Of a stretch of 64,000 bases of DNA, positions 7,548 through 57,649 are shown one piece after another. Source of the stretch: Candidatus Woesearchaeota archaeon (GTDB lineage Archaea > Nanobdellota > Nanobdellia > Pacearchaeales > GW2011-AR1); contig CAYOYN010000002.1 in assembly GCA_964408235.1 (NCBI GenBank), positions 44,459 through 108,458 on the forward strand. The letters are read 5' to 3'. A program made the position numbers and the translations under genes. Positions within the stretch are counted from its first letter, which is position 1; every line of letters begins with the position of its first letter. The notes beneath the pieces were generated by a model, which saw only the letters and a list, made by a program, of their open reading frames with translations, was not told where the DNA came from and made no database searches.

Positions 7548-10007
7548 ATGAAGACCGTGAACTTTTCTACGATTGATAAAAAATGGCAGAAAGAATGGGA
7601 AAAGTCAAAGATCTTTGAGTCTAAAGAAGACCGTAAGAAGGAAAAATATTACGTTTTAGAAATGTACCCCTATCCTTCAGCTCATGGATTGCATATGGGC
7701 CATGCATTCAATTATACTATAGGAGATATTGTTGCAAGATTTATGAAAATGAACGGTAAATCAGTTCTTCATCCAATGGGTTTTGATAGTTTTGGGTTGC
7801 CTGCAGAAAACGCTGCAATAAAGGAAGGAACTCACCCAAGAAAATATACTGATGTTGCAATAAAAAGATTTATTGAACAACAAAAAGCTTTGGGGTTGAG
7901 TTACGATTGGTCTAAAAAAATACAAAGTCACGATCCTAACTATTACAAATGGAATCAATATTTCTTTTTGCAATTTTTAAAAAAAGGTCTTGCTTATAGA
8001 AAGGAATCTCCTGTTAATTGGTGTTCAAAATGCGAGAGTGTTTTAGCAAATGAACAAGTTCATGATGGAAAATGTTGGAGGCATAACGATACAGAGGTAA
8101 TTGTTAAAAATTTAGAGCAATGGTTCATTAAAACAACAAAATATGCTGAAGAACTTTTGAGGGATGTTGATTCTTTGGACTGGCCTCAAAGGATTAAATC
8201 TATGCAAAAAAATTGGATTGGAAAGAGCGAAGGAACTGAAGTATTATTTGAAATAGAAGGAGAAAAATGGCCTGTTTTTACAACAAGAGTAGATACATTA
8301 TTTGGAGTTACTTTCTTAGTTGTTAGTGCTCAACACTCTAAACTTTCTGAATTAGTCACTAAGGAACAGAAGAAGCATGTTGATGCTTTTTTGAAAAAAG
8401 TCAAAAGTACTAAACAAGAAGATATGGACAAAATGGATAAAGAGGGAGTATTTAGTGGGAGTTATGCTATTCATCCTTTGACAGGTAAGAAAGTCCCCAT
8501 ATGGATTGGAAATTTTGTAGTTGCAGATTATGGGTCGGGCATTGTAATGGCTGTTCCTGCCCATGATTCTCGTGATTTTGATTTTGCTAAGAAATATGAC
8601 ATTCCATTAATTCAAGTAATAAAGCCTGTTAAGGTAGAACATGCAAAAAGTAAATTATTTGAAGATTTTGGAATTTTAACTAACTCTCATGATTTTAACG
8701 GCTTGACTAGTGAAGAAGCTATAAAACATATTCAGGTGGTTTTGAAGGAAAGAAAGCTTGGAGGAGCAGTTACAAATTATAAATTGCGCGATTGGTTAAT
8801 CTCTAGACAAAGATATTGGGGAACACCTATTCCTATAATTTATTGTAATGATTGTGGTGTTGTTCCAGTTCCGGAAAAAGAATTACCTGTTTTATTGCCT
8901 GAGAAGGTTACATTTGGAAAGGGGAACCCTCTTCTTACTAATGAAAAATTCGTAAATTCAAAATGTCCTACTTGTGGTAAGAATGCAAGACGTGAAACTG
9001 ACACGATGGACACTTTTATGGATTCTAGTTGGTATTATATGAGGTTTACTGATCCAACTAATAATAAAATGCCTATAAGTGTAGATTGTGTTAATTATTG
9101 GATGCCTGTTGATTTTTACAGCGGTGGTGCAGAGCATGCTTGTATGCATTTAATTTATGCAAGATTTTTTACAAAGGCTTTACGTGATTTGGGTTATTCG
9201 AAAGTTAATGAACCATTTGTAAAATTGTTTAATCAGGGAATGCTTCATGGGGAAGATGGTTTTGTTATGTCCAAATCTAGAGGTAATGGGGTCGATCCTC
9301 TTGATGTTAGTAAGAAGTATGGTGCAGATACATTAAGGTTATTTTTAATGAGTGTTGCTTCTCCAGATAAAGATTTTACCTGGAGTACTACAGGTGTTGA
9401 GTCCATGTATAAATTTGTTAGTCGTGTTTGGGATTATGCTCATAAGGTAAATTTCGAAAAATCTTCTGCTAGAATTAAGCACAAGTTGAATAAAGGGATT
9501 ATCCAGATTGGAGAAGATATAAAAAATATTAATTATAATTTGGCTGTAATTAAGTTGCGTTCTTTATTTGATAGTTTTGAGGATCAAATAGATAAGGCGG
9601 ATTTTGCAACCTACTTACAGCTTCTTTCTCCATTTGCTCCGCATATTGCCGAAGAGTTGTGGCACAATGTTTTAGGATATGATACTTTTGTAAGTGATAG
9701 TGATTGGCCTATCGCAGATAAAAGTAAAATAAATGATTCAATTGATGTAGCCGAAGAAAGTTTTGAAAAAACGGTTTCAGATATTCAGAATATCTTAAGA
9801 ATTATCAAGGAAAAAGATGGTAAAGATGCTAAACATATTTATCTTTATACTATTCCTCCAGAAGTAAAGAACTTTGATAAAGAAATATTATCTAAAAGGC
9901 TCGGGATTGATGTAAGCATATTTGCTGTTAACGATAGTAAAAAATATGATCCCTCTTCTAAAGCAACTAAGGCAAAACCTGGAAAACCTGCAATTTATGT
10001 AGAATGA
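7548..10007 (+). CDS. leuS: Leucyl-tRNA synthetase, archaeal type
   Basis: Class I HIGH-type motif (PYPSAHGLHMGHAFNYTIGD) and KMSKS motif (VMSKSRGNGVDP). Confidence 0.9.
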   Translation: MKTVNFSTIDKKWQKEWEKSKIFESKEDRKKEKYYVLEMYPYPSAHGLHMGHAFNYTIGDIVARFMKMNGKSVLHPMGFDSFGLPAENAAIKEGTHPRKYTDVAIKRFIEQQKALGLSYDWSKKIQSHDPNYYKWNQYFFLQFLKKGLAYRKESPVNWCSKCESVLANEQVHDGKCWRHNDTEVIVKNLEQWFIKTTKYAEELLRDVDSLDWPQRIKSMQKNWIGKSEGTEVLFEIEGEKWPVFTTRVDTLFGVTFLVVSAQHSKLSELVTKEQKKHVDAFLKKVKSTKQEDMDKMDKEGVFSGSYAIHPLTGKKVPIWIGNFVVADYGSGIVMAVPAHDSRDFDFAKKYDIPLIQVIKPVKVEHAKSKLFEDFGILTNSHDFNGLTSEEAIKHIQVVLKERKLGGAVTNYKLRDWLISRQRYWGTPIPIIYCNDCGVVPVPEKELPVLLPEKVTFGKGNPLLTNEKFVNSKCPTCGKNARRETDTMDTFMDSSWYYMRFTDPTNNKMPISVDCVNYWMPVDFYSGGAEHACMHLIYARFFTKALRDLGYSKVNEPFVKLFNQGMLHGEDGFVMSKSRGNGVDPLDVSKKYGADTLRLFLMSVASPDKDFTWSTTGVESMYKFVSRVWDYAHKVNFEKSSARIKHKLNKGIIQIGEDIKNINYNLAVIKLRSLFDSFEDQIDKADFATYLQLLSPFAPHIAEELWHNVLGYDTFVSDSDWPIADKSKINDSIDVAEESFEKTVSDIQNILRIIKEKDGKDAKHIYLYTIPPEVKNFDKEILSKRLGIDVSIFAVNDSKKYDPSSKATKAKPGKPAIYVE

Positions 10008-15307: not shown

Positions 15308-16156
15308 ATGGTTTATAGGAGAGACTACAGACGTTCCAAAGTATCTGTTAAAAAAAGAAAAATATTCAGTTTGACTACTTCAATTATATTTGTAAATGTA
15401 GTTTTATTTTTTTTATTTTCTATCGTTTCTTTATTTTATCCTAATTTTATTAATTTCATAGCTATCAAACCTTCTTCAGTTTTATCTGGGGATTATGTCT
15501 GGACAATTTTTACTAGTATGTTTATGCATGGAAGTTTCTTTCATTTATTTGTGAATATGCTTTCTCTATTTTTTTTAGGTAGTCTAACTGAACAAATAAT
15601 AGGTAGGAAGAGATTTTTCTGGTTTTATCTTCTTGCAGGAATAATGGGTGGATTATTTTTTGTTTTGTTTGCATACATAGGAAGCTTTTTTTCAAGAGGA
15701 GATTTTATTTTTGGAGGAATTAATGATTTTGCAGTCGGTGCAAGTGGGGCTATTTTCGGCTTACTAGGCATCCTTGCGACATTGTTGCCTAAGAAGAAGG
15801 TATACCTTATTATTGGACCTTTAATAGTAATTGTTCTTCAAGTTTTAATTTCTGGATTAATTCCTTCAATATCAGGGTTGCTAGATATAATCGGAGGAGT
15901 TTTAATATTTTTAATGATCTTTTCCATATTTTCGCCTAACCCTCTATTTAGAAAGGTTGCTATTCCATTAAGTTTACCCTTTTGGCTTGCCCCTATAATC
16001 GCTATTGTTCCTTTGTTAATGATTGGTTTTTTTGTTAAACTACCTATTGGAAATATGGCTCATCTTGGGGGTTTAGTGGTTGGATTAATTTATGGTTATT
16101 ATTTAAGGAATAAATATAAGCAAAAGGTTAAATTGCTAAATAGAATTATTAGATGA
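15308..16156 (+). CDS. Rhomboid-family intramembrane serine protease
   Basis: GASGAIFGLLG active-site motif (GxSG) and the catalytic His in AHLGGLVVG; about 6 TM helices. Confidence 0.8.
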   Translation: MVYRRDYRRSKVSVKKRKIFSLTTSIIFVNVVLFFLFSIVSLFYPNFINFIAIKPSSVLSGDYVWTIFTSMFMHGSFFHLFVNMLSLFFLGSLTEQIIGRKRFFWFYLLAGIMGGLFFVLFAYIGSFFSRGDFIFGGINDFAVGASGAIFGLLGILATLLPKKKVYLIIGPLIVIVLQVLISGLIPSISGLLDIIGGVLIFLMIFSIFSPNPLFRKVAIPLSLPFWLAPIIAIVPLLMIGFFVKLPIGNMAHLGGLVVGLIYGYYLRNKYKQKVKLLNRIIR

Positions 16157-26574: not shown

Positions 26575-26835
26575 TTATTCTTCAGCCTCTAACCTTATCC
26601 TGCTTTTATGTAATCTATATTCTATTAGCCCTATTATCCCTAAAATAAAGCCTCCTATAATTGTAGCCATCCCTACTTTTAACATCGAATTATTTTGATT
26701 AGAAAACTGTATTAATGCAAAACCTAAAATCAAGGCTGAAAAAGTTGTTCTTATATATGACAAAAGGGTTCTTTCATTAGCCAATAGGGCACTTTCTTCT
26801 TCTAATTTTAATTTTTTATTCCCCTTATTTTTCAT
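26575..26835 (-). CDS. DUF202 (YidH-like) membrane protein
   Basis: LANERTLLSYIRTTFSALILG motif; 2 TM helices. Confidence 0.6.
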   Translation of the reverse strand: MKNKGNKKLKLEEESALLANERTLLSYIRTTFSALILGFALIQFSNQNNSMLKVGMATIIGGFILGIIGLIEYRLHKSRIRLEAEE

Positions 26836-26874: not shown

Positions 26875-27072
26875 TTAATTTTTCAAGTCGGAAATACCTA
26901 GAAGTATGAAAAGAACACCAATCATTGTTACGAGCCAGAATAATCCTCCTTTAAAGAATTCTCCTGCAGCGTTCCAAAAATTCCATGCTCCCCAGTTCTG
27001 AGAATAGTATGCAATAAGTATTGCACCTACCACTAGGATAAGACCCACAAGAAGTTCGGACCATTTATTCAT
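26875..27072 (-). CDS. Hypothetical small membrane protein
   Basis: 65 aa, 2 TM helices. Confidence 0.3.
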   Translation of the reverse strand: MNKWSELLVGLILVVGAILIAYYSQNWGAWNFWNAAGEFFKGGLFWLVTMIGVLFILLGISDLKN

Positions 27073-27125: not shown

Positions 27126-28532
27126 TTATAGAAGGCCTAGAAGACTAAGTCTAGGGAATGTTAATCCATTTACATTATCTGTAATTTGGGTCTGAGATTT
27201 CATCAAAAACCTGTTGATTTTTAATGTTCCAATTAGGTTTCTTTTAAAATTGTTATTGTATTTTTGTCTTACTAAAGCAACTGCTCCAGCAACGTGTGCT
27301 GCTGCCTGAGATGTTCCGCTACAAGTTCCAATTGCTCCTACTCCTGCTCCGCAAACTGTTCCGTTTGATGCAGCAGTAGAAGTTATTGTGGCTCCTGGGG
27401 CTACTAATTTTAGATTATCTCCAGTATTTGATGCACAAGCTATTTTATCTACAACTCTTAATTCTTGACAAACTCCTATCCAGTTAAATGTGAATGGTGT
27501 GACTGTTTTATCATAGGTTGCTCCTACAGATGTTGCATTTGGAGAACATGCTGGATAAGATATTCCATTTTTATATCCTTGATTACCTGATGAAACAATT
27601 ACCGGGATTCCATATCCTGCTGCAGTGTTTATTCCAGTATCCATCCAAGTAGGGCATGTATTTGATGTGCTATTGTAACTCTGTCCATCACCGATACTCA
27701 TAGATATTGCACTAAGTTTCTTATAGCCTATTGTTGTTAGACAATGGTTTAGTCCTGCAATCATATTAATATTTGAACAAGAACCTGCTGAATTACATAC
27801 TTTTTCTGCAATTATTAATGCATCCGGTGCTACTCCTCTAATGCTTTGATTATTAGAGGGGTTTACTCCTTTTGCCGCGATTATTCCTGCTAGGTGTGTT
27901 CCGTGACCGTTATCATCCATTGGGTTTGAATCGTTATTTACAAAGTCCCAACCACCTATTATTTTAACACCCCATCCTGCTCCAAGTGCATTGTGGTTAT
28001 AATCTACTCCTGTATCTAATAAACACACTACTTGTCCTAATCCTGTTAGGTTTGTTGTCTGAGATCCATAAGGAACTTGAACATTCCAAGCATTTGTAGC
28101 GTTTATTAATTGAAGGCTTTCTTGCAATTGTATCTCTAAGGTACTTTCTGCAAAGATTTCTTCTACAAGGTTACTTTCTTTAAGAGCTTCTATTGTTTTT
28201 TTATCTGCTTCTATTGCTAATGAGTTTAAAGAATCATATGTGTAAATTATTTTCAATTCTTCCCCTTGTTTTTCAGAAAATTCTTTGGACAATGCATCTA
28301 TGTTATTTTTTGAATACTTGATTATCTTGCTTTGATCTTCAGTATCAAAGTTTCTTCTTAAATTTACAATAACTCTTACTTTATCATTATTTTCTACTTG
28401 TTTGTAAACTTCAGACTCAACTTTTACTTCTACTTTTTCGTCTGATTGAGCTATAGAAAATGAGTTAAAATATATTATAGATAATATAGAAAATAATGCC
28501 AAAATTGCTACGCTTAATTTTACGCCTTTCAT
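27126..28532 (-). CDS. Secreted subtilisin-like serine protease (S8) with an N-terminal propeptide
   Basis: Catalytic triad motifs in order: Asp in VCLLDTGVDYNH, His in HGTHLAGIIAA, Ser in GTSQAAAHVAGAVAL. Signal peptide present. Confidence 0.85.
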   Translation of the reverse strand: MKGVKLSVAILALFSILSIIYFNSFSIAQSDEKVEVKVESEVYKQVENNDKVRVIVNLRRNFDTEDQSKIIKYSKNNIDALSKEFSEKQGEELKIIYTYDSLNSLAIEADKKTIEALKESNLVEEIFAESTLEIQLQESLQLINATNAWNVQVPYGSQTTNLTGLGQVVCLLDTGVDYNHNALGAGWGVKIIGGWDFVNNDSNPMDDNGHGTHLAGIIAAKGVNPSNNQSIRGVAPDALIIAEKVCNSAGSCSNINMIAGLNHCLTTIGYKKLSAISMSIGDGQSYNSTSNTCPTWMDTGINTAAGYGIPVIVSSGNQGYKNGISYPACSPNATSVGATYDKTVTPFTFNWIGVCQELRVVDKIACASNTGDNLKLVAPGATITSTAASNGTVCGAGVGAIGTCSGTSQAAAHVAGAVALVRQKYNNNFKRNLIGTLKINRFLMKSQTQITDNVNGLTFPRLSLLGLL

Positions 28533-28650
28533 GACTAATGTTTAACTATTAAGTAGTATATAAATCTTTGTATGTTCGTTTAATTTTTTACTGTTCAAAT
28601 AGGATTGAAGCTTAAAACGGGTTTAAATATTAGATAAATTTGTATCTGAT

Positions 28651-31047
28651 ATGGATAAGAGTATTAGTATAGATTTAGGAGACCCTAGAACGGGATTAGT
28701 GGCTGAGGCTTTGTCTAACAAGACTTGTGTTAAGATTTTAGATCTATTGGCGGCTCAGGAACTAACTGCAAGTGATATTGCTTCTAAATTAAATATTCCT
28801 TTGAATACTACAGGGTATAATTTAGAAAAATTGATTAAGGCAGGTTTGGTTGAGAAATCTAATAACTTCTTTTGGAGTGTCAAAGGGAAAAAAACTCCAA
28901 TTTATAGGGTAGCAAATAAAAAGATAGTTATCTCTCCAAAGAGAATGGTTGCTAAAGTAGTTCCTTTTGTTTTAGTTGCAGGAGTTTTAATGTTGCTTGC
29001 TGTTTCTTTCATGTTTAATGATTCTAGGTCTACTCAAGGAAGTTTGTCAGGTAATTTAGAGCAATTCGAGTCATACGAAGAACTTAATGAGTATGTAGAA
29101 AAATCTAGGTCTTTACAGAGCGGGGATTCATACAGTTTATTTGGAAGGCAAGAAGATGCAGTTTCTTCTGGGGACTCAATGGTTGCAGCTCCAGCTTTAG
29201 GTGAGGCTGGTACAAAATCTTCTGTTGGAGGAAGCGGAGCTAGCGATTATTCTAGTACTAATATTCAAGTTTTAGGAGTTGATGAAGCAGATATTGTAAA
29301 AAATGATGGTAAATATATTTACACAGTCAGCACTAATAAGGTAACAATTGTTGAAGCTTATCCTGCTGACTCTATGAATATTGTTTCAGAGTTAGAATTT
29401 GAGAATTATGTAAATGGAATATTCCTTTACGATGGTAAACTGATTGTAATAGAATCCTCTTATGGTTATTCATTGTATGGTGGAGCTGAGTTAGATAAAG
29501 TTGCTGGAACAAGTATTCGTGCACCGGACTATTCAAGAAATGAAGTAAATGTACATGTTTATGATGTAAGCTCGGACAAAATTTCAAAGCCTGAAAAAAT
29601 TCAGACCTTTGTAGTTGATGGTAGTTATCAGACTGCTAGAATTCTTAATGGGTATGTTTATCTTATAGCTAATAAATATATTGATTCTTCGCCTATTATT
29701 CCATATTTTAGAGCCGGAGATCAAGTTGAGACTGTATCTGCTGACAAGGTTTATCACTCTGGGTACTATGACTCGAGCCTTATATTTACCTCAGTTATGG
29801 CAATTAACTTAGATAATTTGGAATATAACGGGAATGTATTTCTTTTAGGAAGTAGCACTTCGGTATATGTATCTGAAAACGCAATTTATTTGACAAGTAG
29901 CAAAACATATGATTATTCAAAGGTTCAGGAAGGGGCTTTAAACATTATTTTAGAAGTCTTACCTGGTAAATTTAGATCGGATGCTGAGAAAATTATCTCC
30001 TCCGATGATGAATATTATATTAAATCTGATAAGATTTCTTTTATTGTTCAAGAATACTTCAATTCCTTGAGCATTGATGAAAAGAAAGAATTTGAAAATG
30101 CACTTACAGAGGCAGGAAATGAATATTATTTAGGAGTTTCAAAAGAATATGAAAAAACCTTAGTTCATAGGATCGATTTAGATGGTTTAGATATATCTTA
30201 TTCTAATTCAGGGGAAGTTCCAGGTTATGTTCTCAACCAGTTCTCTATGGATGAATTTGATGGACACTTTAGAATTGCGACTACTACAGGAAATAGCTTT
30301 GGATCTTTTGAAAATTCCTTTAATCATCTTTATATCTTAAATGAAGATTTGGAAATAGTTGGTAGTGTTGAAGATTTAGCAGAGGGTGAAAGAATTTATT
30401 CTGCTAGATTTGTAGGAGATAAAGCCTATTTAGTTACATTTAGACAAGTCGATCCGCTTTATGTGATTGATTTGTCAGACGCTAGAAATCCAAAAGTGAT
30501 GGGTTATTTGAAAGTGACTGGTTTTTCTAATTATCTTCACCCTATTAAAGATAATTTGCTTTTAGGTATTGGAAGAGAAACAACTGAAGAAGGAAGAGCT
30601 GAAGGCTTGAAGGTTTCTCTTTTTGATATTTCTGATTTCGAAAATCCTAAAGAATTGGATAAATATGTTGTTGATAGTGATTGGTCTTATTCTGAAGCTG
30701 AATATGAACATAAGGCTGTTTTGTTTGATGAAGAACGTGACTTGTTAGTTATCCCAGTTACTTATTCTCAGCAATTAGGTAACAATTGGGAATATTGGCA
30801 AGGAGCTTTTGCATTTACAGTTACAGATAATGATATCTCTCTGAAGGGAAAAATCTCTCATGATGTGAAAGAGCAAAAAACTGAGGAATATTATGGCTCT
30901 CAAGGATATGTTTCAAGATCTATATTTATGGATGAAGTGTTATATACTATTTCCAATTTAATGATCAAGGCTAATTCAATTAGCGATTTGAAACTAATTG
31001 GAGAAATCAATTTACCATTTGATGAGCCTGTTTATTATGCATTTTAG
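28651..31047 (+). CDS. Membrane-tethered ArsR-type HTH protein with a large extracellular beta-propeller-like domain
   Basis: N-terminal wHTH (CVKILDLLAAQELTASDIASKLNIPLNTTGYNLEKLIKAGLV), one TM helix around residues 105-125, then about 670 aa of beta-rich repeats like the Beta_propel family. Confidence 0.6.
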   Translation: MDKSISIDLGDPRTGLVAEALSNKTCVKILDLLAAQELTASDIASKLNIPLNTTGYNLEKLIKAGLVEKSNNFFWSVKGKKTPIYRVANKKIVISPKRMVAKVVPFVLVAGVLMLLAVSFMFNDSRSTQGSLSGNLEQFESYEELNEYVEKSRSLQSGDSYSLFGRQEDAVSSGDSMVAAPALGEAGTKSSVGGSGASDYSSTNIQVLGVDEADIVKNDGKYIYTVSTNKVTIVEAYPADSMNIVSELEFENYVNGIFLYDGKLIVIESSYGYSLYGGAELDKVAGTSIRAPDYSRNEVNVHVYDVSSDKISKPEKIQTFVVDGSYQTARILNGYVYLIANKYIDSSPIIPYFRAGDQVETVSADKVYHSGYYDSSLIFTSVMAINLDNLEYNGNVFLLGSSTSVYVSENAIYLTSSKTYDYSKVQEGALNIILEVLPGKFRSDAEKIISSDDEYYIKSDKISFIVQEYFNSLSIDEKKEFENALTEAGNEYYLGVSKEYEKTLVHRIDLDGLDISYSNSGEVPGYVLNQFSMDEFDGHFRIATTTGNSFGSFENSFNHLYILNEDLEIVGSVEDLAEGERIYSARFVGDKAYLVTFRQVDPLYVIDLSDARNPKVMGYLKVTGFSNYLHPIKDNLLLGIGRETTEEGRAEGLKVSLFDISDFENPKELDKYVVDSDWSYSEAEYEHKAVLFDEERDLLVIPVTYSQQLGNNWEYWQGAFAFTVTDNDISLKGKISHDVKEQKTEEYYGSQGYVSRSIFMDEVLYTISNLMIKANSISDLKLIGEINLPFDEPVYYAF

Positions 31048-56611: not shown

Positions 56612-57022
56612 TTATAGGTTGTAACGTAATGGGGACTTGGCTCCACAAGCAAGGCAGTGCTTGAATTTAACTCCTTTTTCAGTTACTATTTCTGTGTCTG
56701 GTTTTTTACATTCTATGCAAATAACAAATTCTTTAACATATAGTTCTAATTTTTCATTTACCTTACTTGAATTTAACATTGTTTTTAATACTAATCTGTC
56801 TTTTTCTAATACTCCGGCTACCGCTAATTCTTTTTGAAGGAATTTTGCCAAATTTTCAACAGGTCTTCTTATATATGAAGCAATTTCATTAATATTTGTA
56901 ATAAATGTGTTTTTTCCAGATACTTGGCCTTTAACCTTTGGGACTTCAAACCTATCGGAAGAAGTTTGAACTACCTTTATTTTCTTATAGGCTGTATCAA
57001 GCATAGATTCATATGATTCCAT
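56612..57022 (-). CDS. eif2b: Translation initiation factor aIF-2 beta subunit
   Basis: C4 zinc ribbon (CIECKKPDT...CLACG) and the conserved N-terminal helices. Confidence 0.85.
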   Translation of the reverse strand: MESYESMLDTAYKKIKVVQTSSDRFEVPKVKGQVSGKNTFITNINEIASYIRRPVENLAKFLQKELAVAGVLEKDRLVLKTMLNSSKVNEKLELYVKEFVICIECKKPDTEIVTEKGVKFKHCLACGAKSPLRYNL

Positions 57023-57073
57023 TGAATTTGAACACTTATGAAGGTTTATAAATTTGATTTAATATCCTTTTAG

Positions 57074-57649
57074 ATGAAATTTAAGAACTTTATTTTGGGG
57101 CTTGGCATATTTATCGTATTTGCATTGTCTCTTTTTCAAGGACTTGAAACATTTTATCCTACTCCTCAATATGATGATTTCTGTGAATTTAGGTCTGGAC
57201 CTATTGTAACTAAACCTACTGAATGTACTAATAATCTCGAATTACAAAATAGGGCAGATCAATGCTGGCAGTCTAATGGAGAATTTGTTTACGAGTATGA
57301 TTCAAATGGTTGTGCTATTGATGGATATTGCGATGGTTGCAGAATAGATTATGAGGACGCTTTAGATGAACATTCTAAGTATGTTTTCATTATATCTATC
57401 GTTATAGGTATAATTGCTTTTATAGCTGGAATGGTCTTGCTTAAGACTGAACCAGTTGGAAGCGCTTTAATGGCTTCTGGAATTTGGTCAGTATTTTATG
57501 GAGTGGTGAAGAACTGGAGAAACTTTACAGATAGTTGGAGATTTTTGCTCTTATTTGTATTGCTAATAGTATTGATTTGGGTAGCATTAAGATTTAACAA
57601 AAAGAATGAAGGTTTTGTTTCTAAAATAAAACATAAGCTTAGAAGATAA
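57074..57649 (+). CDS. Hypothetical membrane protein with a Cys-rich extracytoplasmic segment
   Basis: Signal/anchor helix, 8 Cys within about 60 aa, then 2 TM helices. Confidence 0.4.
   Translation: MKFKNFILGLGIFIVFALSLFQGLETFYPTPQYDDFCEFRSGPIVTKPTECTNNLELQNRADQCWQSNGEFVYEYDSNGCAIDGYCDGCRIDYEDALDEHSKYVFIISIVIGIIAFIAGMVLLKTEPVGSALMASGIWSVFYGVVKNWRNFTDSWRFLLLFVLLIVLIWVALRFNKKNEGFVSKIKHKLRR

Follow-up and report, generated by a model that had tools for sequence, protein, structure and literature searches.

Transmembrane transcription regulators (TTRs), in which a DNA-binding domain and at least one transmembrane (TM) region are joined in one polypeptide, are widespread among Archaea, where a census counted 1,384 of them in 367 of 404 species (PMC10269533). 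The present analysis concerns a protein of 798 amino acids (aa) that combines both parts, a winged helix-turn-helix (wHTH) domain and a single TM helix, and continues with a stalk and a Beta_propel domain. It is encoded at 28651-31047 on the forward strand of a 64,000-nt window (the whole stretch of DNA that was analysed) of contig CAYOYN010000002.1, from a Candidatus Pacearchaeota metagenome-assembled genome (MAG) with about 32% GC, and was delimited by its open reading frame (ORF), by Pfam and by an AlphaFold2 (AF2) model. Its existing NCBI name is 'beta-propeller domain-containing protein', and the product of its divergent neighbour is named 'S8 family peptidase'. We favour, with moderate confidence and on the basis of sequence comparisons, the reading that this protein may be a transmembrane transcription regulator that binds a palindrome, controls its own operon and is modulated by its extracytoplasmic domain. 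This is an uncharacterised TTR family with a well-defined candidate operator, and the underlying principle itself is unsurprising.

The bacterial ToxR/ToxS, TcpP/TcpH and CadC systems likewise have a cytoplasmic winged helix, one TM helix and an extracytoplasmic domain, and bind DNA from the membrane (partly after PMC10269533). Their DNA-binding domain is of the OmpR/PhoB type (Trans_reg_C, PF00486), whereas that of the window protein is of the ArsR/HTH_20 type; the outside domain is here a beta-propeller of about 590 aa, and the host is an archaeon whose target promoter carries a B recognition element (BRE) and a TATA box. No homology of the 798-aa protein to ToxR/ToxS, TcpP/TcpH or CadC was detected, and Pfam gave no Trans_reg_C match in it, so that it resembles ToxR and CadC in logic and is not a member of their family.

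An archaeal precedent is provided by ArnR and ArnR1 of Sulfolobus acidocaldarius, membrane-bound one-component regulators with an N-terminal HTH and two C-terminal TM helices, which are found in Sulfolobales and Desulfurococcales; ArnR acts on promoter cis elements of a cell-surface structure (PMC6396743). ArnR has a cytoplasmic HAMP-like and sensing domain and neither a large ectodomain nor an exported partner (PMC6396743), whereas in the AF2 model of the window protein no cytoplasmic domain lies between the HTH and the TM helix. A preliminary description of the locus, made from the sequence alone, had called such an architecture unusual for archaea; given the census, ArnR and the fact that 108 of the 120 best homologs of the 798-aa protein have the same HTH_20 plus Beta_propel architecture, this view cannot be kept.

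The best sequence matches of the N-terminal domain are ArsR/SmtB and Phr-type repressors (PH1932/1ULY, Phr/2P4W, SdpR), the nearest solved relative in a profile search being PH1932/1ULY (E 2.6e-7), with Phr (2P4W) also near. Repressors of these types bind palindromic operators as dimers, and autoregulation is common among them. The window protein failed the tests for ArsR/SmtB metalloregulators, scoring 31.5 bits with NF033788 (cutoff 55) and 26 bits with the SdpR model (cutoff 100). It differs from them also in that C26 is its only Cys and that it lacks a CXC motif, helix 5 and the C-terminal dimerisation helix, the wing being followed by the TM helix.

Architecture and predicted topology of the 798-aa protein

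Pfam places HTH_20 at residues 21-68 (E 1e-11), together with HTH_5/ArsR (E 5e-7), and also lists TrmB, HTH_24 and MarR-type matches. The Beta_propel family (PF09826) covers residues 200-780 and matches along its full profile (positions 1-495 of 495; E 9e-150, 500.2 bits against a cutoff of 22.4). A single hydrophobic segment was found by hydropathy at residues 103-121 or thereabouts; the 16 residues before it contain five K/R and no D/E, and the 18 after it one K/R and three D/E. Because this K/R excess precedes the helix, the positive-inside rule predicts an N-in orientation, with the N-terminus and the wHTH in the cytoplasm, as is required of a TTR, and the propeller outside.

The AF2 model, built from an alignment of 54 sequences (predicted local distance difference test, pLDDT, 79; predicted template modelling score, pTM, 0.72), agrees with this arrangement. 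Along the chain it has the winged HTH (residues 10-93), the TM helix (104-121), a short helix (142-157), a Ser/Gly/Ala stalk that is disordered (157-203) and a propeller (204-790) that carries a four-helix insert (422-500). On the forward strand the ArsR/Phr-like cytoplasmic wHTH (pLDDT 80-93) corresponds to 28678-28929, the single N-in TM helix, for which hydropathy, flanking charges and the model concur, to 28957-29013, and the extracytoplasmic juxtamembrane helix with the Ser/Gly/Ala-rich disordered stalk, delimited at residues 136-203 by conservation and the model, to 29056-29259. At the level of sequence and model, both the layout that had been proposed, with the HTH inside, one TM helix and a folded module outside, and the expectation of a propeller were borne out, the latter by the predicted fold of the PF09826 region and by the full-length profile match. 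A likeness to LVIVD-repeat propellers was considered and dropped, as Pfam gave no LVIVD match at E 0.01.

One TM helix was found in 118 of the 120 best homologs. In the recognition helix, PLNTTGYNLEKL, T53, Y56 and L61 are invariant, and its consensus P-L-N-T-V-x-Y-N-L-K-K-L is among the best-conserved stretches of the protein. Only about 10 residues, among them a conserved 'IVISPK', tether the wHTH to the TM helix; I94 is invariant and S95, P96 and P105 are nearly so. On the other side of the membrane, the juxtamembrane motif LxxFxSxxEL has an invariant F139 and a nearly invariant S141.

The full-length match makes the protein a member of PF09826/COG4880 ('secreted protein with C-terminal beta-propeller domain'), a family with members in DPANN, Methanosarcinales, Methanomicrobiales, Nitrososphaeria, Hadarchaeota, Bacillota and bacteria of the candidate phyla radiation (CPR), most members outside DPANN being without a fused HTH. 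No PF09826 member with a known function or a solved structure was found. Nor was a functional description of PF09826/COG4880, of HVO_1552 (see below) or of archaeal wHTH-propeller fusions found in the literature, a survey of membrane proteins included (PMC5898192), and Beta_propel goes unmentioned in the text-form supplements of the TTR census. One literature match, the PSP paper, was discarded, as it concerns an unrelated AAA+ protein.

The two-gene module and the exchange of its partner

Neighbourhood comparisons covered 80 loci from other genomes, with 683 neighbouring ORFs clustered, a set of close relatives (L081/L082 and L083-L087) whose regulator is 66-75% identical to that of the window, and six loci (L101-L106) reached through the wHTH gene when it stands alone. 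The clustering gave as conserved partners only this wHTH gene, here called gene A, and lineage-level synteny (DHH, UPP synthase, Nre).

Gene A encodes a protein of about 190-230 aa composed of the wHTH, a first TM helix (TM1), a loop of about 50 aa and a second TM helix (TM2), with a conserved C-terminal LWFLxGAL...WNWRRK; ArnR has the same two-TM layout, a likeness by layout alone. The product of gene B has a TM anchor at its N-terminus, followed by a juxtamembrane helix (K-x-F-x-S-x-x-E-L-x-x-F-L) and by a stalk that leads to the propeller. The two genes lie on the same strand, with A before B in L005, L008, L010, L011, L022, L023, L027 and L039 and B before A in L004, L006 and L105, and are divergent in L040. 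Six Nitrosopumilus loci (L056, L057, L065 and L072-L074) have a divergent, more distant A-like gene beside B (hidden Markov model E 1e-11 to 1e-16); in most of these A-like proteins the hydropathy scan resolves the C-terminal TM helix only. The distribution of the module thus comprises DPANN and Methanosarcinales, and the A-like gene extends it to Nitrosopumilus.

Residues 1-125 of the window protein are collinear with gene A through TM1, and the B-type juxtamembrane motif, which in stand-alone B proteins also follows the TM anchor, comes directly afterwards. Judged from this collinearity, the 798-aa protein is the fused form of the two-gene A/B module. Since the match to A runs through TM1 and is then replaced by the B-type motif, the fusion put TM1 of A in the place of the signal anchor of B, so that the loop and TM2 of A and the anchor of B were removed and the topology was kept. 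The three-TM intermediates that would be expected from a simple loss of a stop codon were not seen among the 120 best homologs. As a gene fusion, it is a Rosetta-stone link that ties the membrane wHTH to the exported propeller at the level of sequence. In terms of the bacterial systems, the split form resembles a regulator that is co-encoded with a membrane-anchored periplasmic partner such as ToxS or TcpH, and the fused form resembles CadC.

A search from the side of gene A gave 387 stand-alone A proteins. In all six contexts examined around them, A adjoins a TM-anchored exported protein, which is Beta_propel in L101 and L105 and a SIMPL-domain protein (PF04402) of about 243 aa in the other four. 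The SIMPL gene lies directly downstream of A, in the syntenic slot that Beta_propel otherwise takes (L102 4629-5363; L103 4602-5333; L104 4600-5325; L106 4588-5313), and is preceded by a Shine-Dalgarno-like GGAGGT in L102-L104. As SIMPL replaces Beta_propel in the same slot of these DPANN genomes and A is retained, the partner is exchangeable and A the constant part. Genes for a reverse transcriptase (RVT_1, about 345 aa) were observed just downstream of the A/partner module in two DPANN loci, L102 (6476-7516) and L105 (5805-6836), each preceded by an unannotated gene of 203-222 aa; they may belong to a diversity-generating or another retroelement.

A culturable representative of the A family may exist in Haloferax volcanii. 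Pfam family PF24267, the C-terminal domain of HVO_1552, consists of the TM-loop-TM region that follows HTH_20, and gene A of L040 (3189-3854, reverse strand) matches it with 36 bits against a cutoff of 27, which makes HVO_1552 a candidate member; a literature search for HVO_1552 gave no paper that mentions it. Gene A of L005 (DPANN), L023 (Methanosarcinales) and L057 (Nitrosopumilus) did not reach E 0.01 with PF24267, and in the window protein the corresponding region was lost through the fusion.

The palindrome of the divergent promoter region

The gap between the S8 gene and the regulator gene is 118 bp long (28533-28650); the coordinates of both ORFs and of this gap, as given in the preliminary description, were reproduced exactly. 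A search for operator palindromes had been suggested there, and an operator-like one is present at 28594-28609: TTCAAATAGGATTGAA, a 16-bp site of the form TTCAA-N6-TTGAA at positions -57 to -42 from the ATG. It is followed by BRE-like bases at 28613-28618 and, on the forward strand, by the TATA box TTTAAATA at 28622-28629, which is invariant in relatives. The centre of the TATA box lies some 25 nt before the ATG, a spacing shared by most genes of the window; therefore, the transcript of the regulator is probably leaderless or nearly so, with the putative transcription start placed accordingly. An alignment of the intergenic region of seven close relatives contains two invariant blocks in front of the regulator, TTTAAATA and GTTCAA-N6-TTGAAG. 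The arms of the palindrome are kept in all seven (a single mismatch occurs in L083), and the spacer varies. The centres of the half-sites are 11 bp apart, which would suit a wHTH dimer. For this region a repeat finder listed nothing beyond trivial AT palindromes, its 6-nt seed being too long for arms of 5 bp.

The position of the palindrome was examined further in 1.2 Mb of fetched locus sequence, as the distance of perfect copies to ORFs starting with ATG. Sixteen copies were found at 57 nt, three at 58 and one at 56, and at every other distance from 40 to 79 nt there are at most three; copies that match nine of the ten arm positions add 11 more at 57 nt. As a background, 39 perfect copies occur in 1.19 million positions, true sites included. 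Every site at this exact distance stands before an A, B or fused gene, apart from the site at 57017 in the window and from an ORF internal to another gene (window 63583), and the placement recurs in many independent lineages. In six of six A-side loci, whatever the partner, the promoter of the operon's first gene carries the palindrome, and in L008, L010 and L011 it precedes both A and B; L002 and L007 conform to the 57-nt rule if their second ATG is taken as the start. This placement at -57 of the promoters of the module hints indirectly at a sequence-specific binding and a control of transcription from the membrane.

Within the window, 28594-28609 is the only perfect intergenic copy. Other perfect copies (11009, 39243 and 42873) are inside coding regions and were treated as chance occurrences, and the possibility that TTGAA is a general promoter element was rejected, as it is found at -46 in only two of 70 promoters of the window. 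A candidate second site, TTCCATTGAATTTGAA (57017-57032; nine of ten arm positions), lies 57 nt upstream of the forward-strand gene 57074-57649, which encodes a signal-anchored, Cys-rich, multi-TM protein of 191 aa. In the 1.2 Mb it is the only -57 site outside A, B and fused genes that heads a real gene. The site overlaps the start codon of a divergent eIF-2-beta-like gene; its right half is kept in most of ten relatives and its left half in close ones only. It is possible, as a weak suggestion from this position, that the gene is a second target of the regulator.

Related sites were seen in front of Beta_propel genes of other archaea. An extended palindrome, ACTTCAA-N6-TTGAAGT, is present in L018 (7796-7815, Methanoperedens) and L032 (3679-3698, Methanosarcinales), and a variant, CTACGA-N6-TCGTAG, in L017 (about 2500-2530, a Methanocellales MAG) and L025 (about 7880-7910, a Halobacteriota MAG); the fetched flanks of these four loci contain no A-type gene. 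In the Nitrosopumilus loci (L056, L057, L065 and L072-L074), the regions between the divergent HTH and Beta_propel genes have in common a conserved block, GGTAAAATTnnnAATTTCAC, upstream of a CTTTTAT box, which is a different imperfect inverted repeat at an equivalent position; as these genomes are closely related, its conservation may reflect mere relatedness. No paper describing the A/B module, the exchange of partners or the palindrome was found, which, with an incomplete coverage of the literature, is weak evidence of absence.

The two divergent promoters of the window also share a 26-nt direct repeat with 73% identity, TTAAGTAGTATATAAATCTTTGTATG and TTAAATATTAGATAAATTTGTATCTG (28549-28574 and 28623-28648), which probably reflects similar TATA-proximal sequence in AT-rich DNA.

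Readings of the locus, its neighbours and its significance

In the mechanism that we favour, the wHTH would be held at the inner face of the membrane and bind TTCAA-N6-TTGAA as a dimer. Being bound just upstream of BRE and TATA, the regulator would control its own synthesis and possibly also a few other envelope genes, and the state of the extracytoplasmic partner would pass through the membrane helix and modulate the control of the promoter. By the usual rule for archaea, activation is somewhat more likely for a site upstream of the BRE, with repression also possible. The proposal that a surface-exposed module is coupled directly to transcription is supported in its outline by the topology and by the operator-like site, whereas the binding of the palindrome by the wHTH, the sign of the regulation and the role of the propeller as the input are what we infer.

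Several observations weigh against this mechanism. Because the site is upstream of the BRE, activation and repression are not distinguishable, and because the tether is so short, the bound promoter must lie at the membrane surface. Gene A occurs without a palindrome in L005. Conversely, in five loci (L018, L020, L021, L032 and L066) the palindrome precedes a Beta_propel gene and there is no A in the fetched flanks, so that the binding protein could be unlinked or another factor. Finally, the propeller has about 30 polar residues that do not vary between Bacillota and DPANN, which would be more in keeping with a conserved enzymatic or ligand-binding site than with a dedicated sensor of signals.

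A broader form of the favoured mechanism would be that gene A and the palindrome constitute a modular envelope-to-gene circuit across much of Archaea, in which the wHTH reads an exchangeable exported partner through intramembrane contact and tunes the promoter of that partner. The circuit would span DPANN and Methanosarcinales, the variant palindromes of Methanocellales and Halobacteriota and the A-like gene of Nitrosopumilus; we put it forward tentatively, as a generalisation that is rather doubtful in its full extent.

Another explanation might be that the exported protein is itself the working part, with a conserved biochemical role of its own in the envelope, and that the wHTH sets its dosage by autogenous control or draws its gene to the membrane, where the large product would then be made at the place of its insertion, no external signal being read. 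We consider this unlikely, yet it is a serious rival because of the invariant polar residues of the propeller, shared across domains of life, and because stand-alone Beta_propel genes with no A nearby are common. The interchange of Beta_propel and SIMPL at constant A and operator, the operator-like site in front of the cargo gene itself and the very short tether between the HTH and the TM helix would also be natural in such a feedback from the cargo. If, in contrast, conformational coupling across the membrane matters, one would expect fusion with a single TM helix, which recurs among the homologs found. This explanation and the transmembrane regulator that we favour differ solely in whether an input is sensed, and the present evidence does not discriminate between them.

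It is also conceivable, at a distinctly lower probability, that the palindrome is read by an unlinked factor and that the wHTH is a protein-protein or a non-specific nucleoid anchor for the surface protein. Domains of the wHTH type are able to mediate protein contacts, the scores with curated ArsR models lie below the cutoffs, and the five palindrome loci without an adjacent A would be accounted for. Such an anchor would not explain why the palindrome stands at the operon promoter in every locus that was reached via A alone, with any partner, why -57 sites are practically exclusive to A, B and fused genes, or why the recognition helix has conserved polar residues.

The neighbouring protease was considered as a further component. 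The S8 gene (27126-28532, reverse strand) is intact. Its product of 468 aa, described previously as a secreted subtilisin with a propeptide, has an N-terminal hydrophobic signal, an Inhibitor_I9 propeptide and a Peptidase_S8 domain (E 7e-39, 134 bits against a cutoff of 21.8) with the catalytic Asp, His and Ser motifs (DTG beginning at residue 173, HGTH at 210 and GTS at 406), and it can be assigned to the S8 family as a secreted subtilase. The gene is present in the window, L083, L084 and L087 and is cleanly missing in three of seven syntenic relatives (L081/L082, L085 and L086). In other genomes it was found within 8 kb in only one of the 80 loci (L010, same strand), and none of the six A-side loci has it near gene A. 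A conserved co-occurrence with the protease, whose lack in other genomes the preliminary description had itself named as refuting, was not seen, and a protease-coupled reading fails. Identities among the relatives are 53-61% for the S8 orthologues, 66-75% for the regulator and 80-89% for Nre, a history that fits vertical descent with repeated loss; by this distribution, the protease is a facultative neighbour, not a conserved partner, and stands outside the mechanism.

The rhomboid gene noted previously in the window is real (15308-16156), and its supposed link to the regulator did not hold: it lies 12.5 kb away in a housekeeping block, TFIIE-alpha/Rhomboid/SpoIIM, which recurs in L102, L103 and L106. 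Regulated intramembrane proteolysis would call for a conserved, co-occurring site-1 or intramembrane protease, which was not found at these loci, the rhomboid being merely syntenic. It is thus very improbable that, once the S8 subtilase has trimmed the ectodomain at site 1, the rhomboid or some other intramembrane protease would release the wHTH into the cytoplasm. The intact divergent gene, the rhomboid in the window, the long disordered stalk and the nearly invariant Pro that opens the TM helix would speak for such a release; against it, besides the pattern of loss and the distance of the rhomboid, the stand-alone A protein, with two TM helices and an outside loop of about 50 aa, has no ectodomain to shed, and the distance from the palindrome to the S8 promoter varies among relatives.

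The locus is embedded in a syntenic block with the order ligase, TBP, DUF5684-like, Nre, DUF202, 65-aa protein, S8, regulator, DHH, UPP synthase, GatE and M1 peptidase. In six relatives this block matches the window gene for gene apart from the S8 slot. The DUF202 gene (26575-26835) and the gene of a 65-aa protein with two TM helices (26875-27072, reverse strand) lie beyond the S8 gene, where DUF202 and small membrane proteins had been placed by the preliminary description. Like the S8 slot, the gap between Nre and DUF202 has variable insertions in syntenic relatives (L083 5302-5918, L084 2963-3904, L085 4796-5287), which comprise a VapB/PIN toxin-antitoxin pair, a beta-lactamase-like gene and an unknown gene of 163 aa; accessory genes thus gather in a small hotspot on the S8/DUF202 side of the regulator.

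The 65-aa protein (MNKW...LLGISDLKN), which has no Pfam match, is conserved far above its neighbours, with 50-98% identity across relatives: 98% in L085, where the regulator has 66%, and 50-83% in L101-L103. Its gene is the divergent neighbour of the regulator, a conserved one, wherever S8 is missing, and the usual divergent neighbour of the regulator or of gene A in DPANN (the clade of the window, L005, L007, L008, L102, L103 and L105).

DPANN archaea have very small genomes with few recognisable signalling systems, and to our knowledge the ways in which they couple the cell surface to gene expression are largely undescribed. The locus offers a concrete unit for this question, with a regulator domain of about 98 aa, a candidate operator of 16 bp at a fixed promoter position, and a natural variation that includes split and fused forms, propeller and SIMPL partners and variant palindromes. 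It gives the large uncharacterised family PF09826 a first functional context, and corrects what had been concluded from the adjacency of genes, the neighbouring protease being dispensable. As a clean test system, it would allow the coupling of envelope and genes to be studied in DPANN and in archaea beyond them. If the reading as a widespread modular circuit were true, the fused propeller would be one of few dedicated surface-to-transcription devices in host-dependent DPANN, and a candidate sensor of the state of the envelope or of contact with the host.

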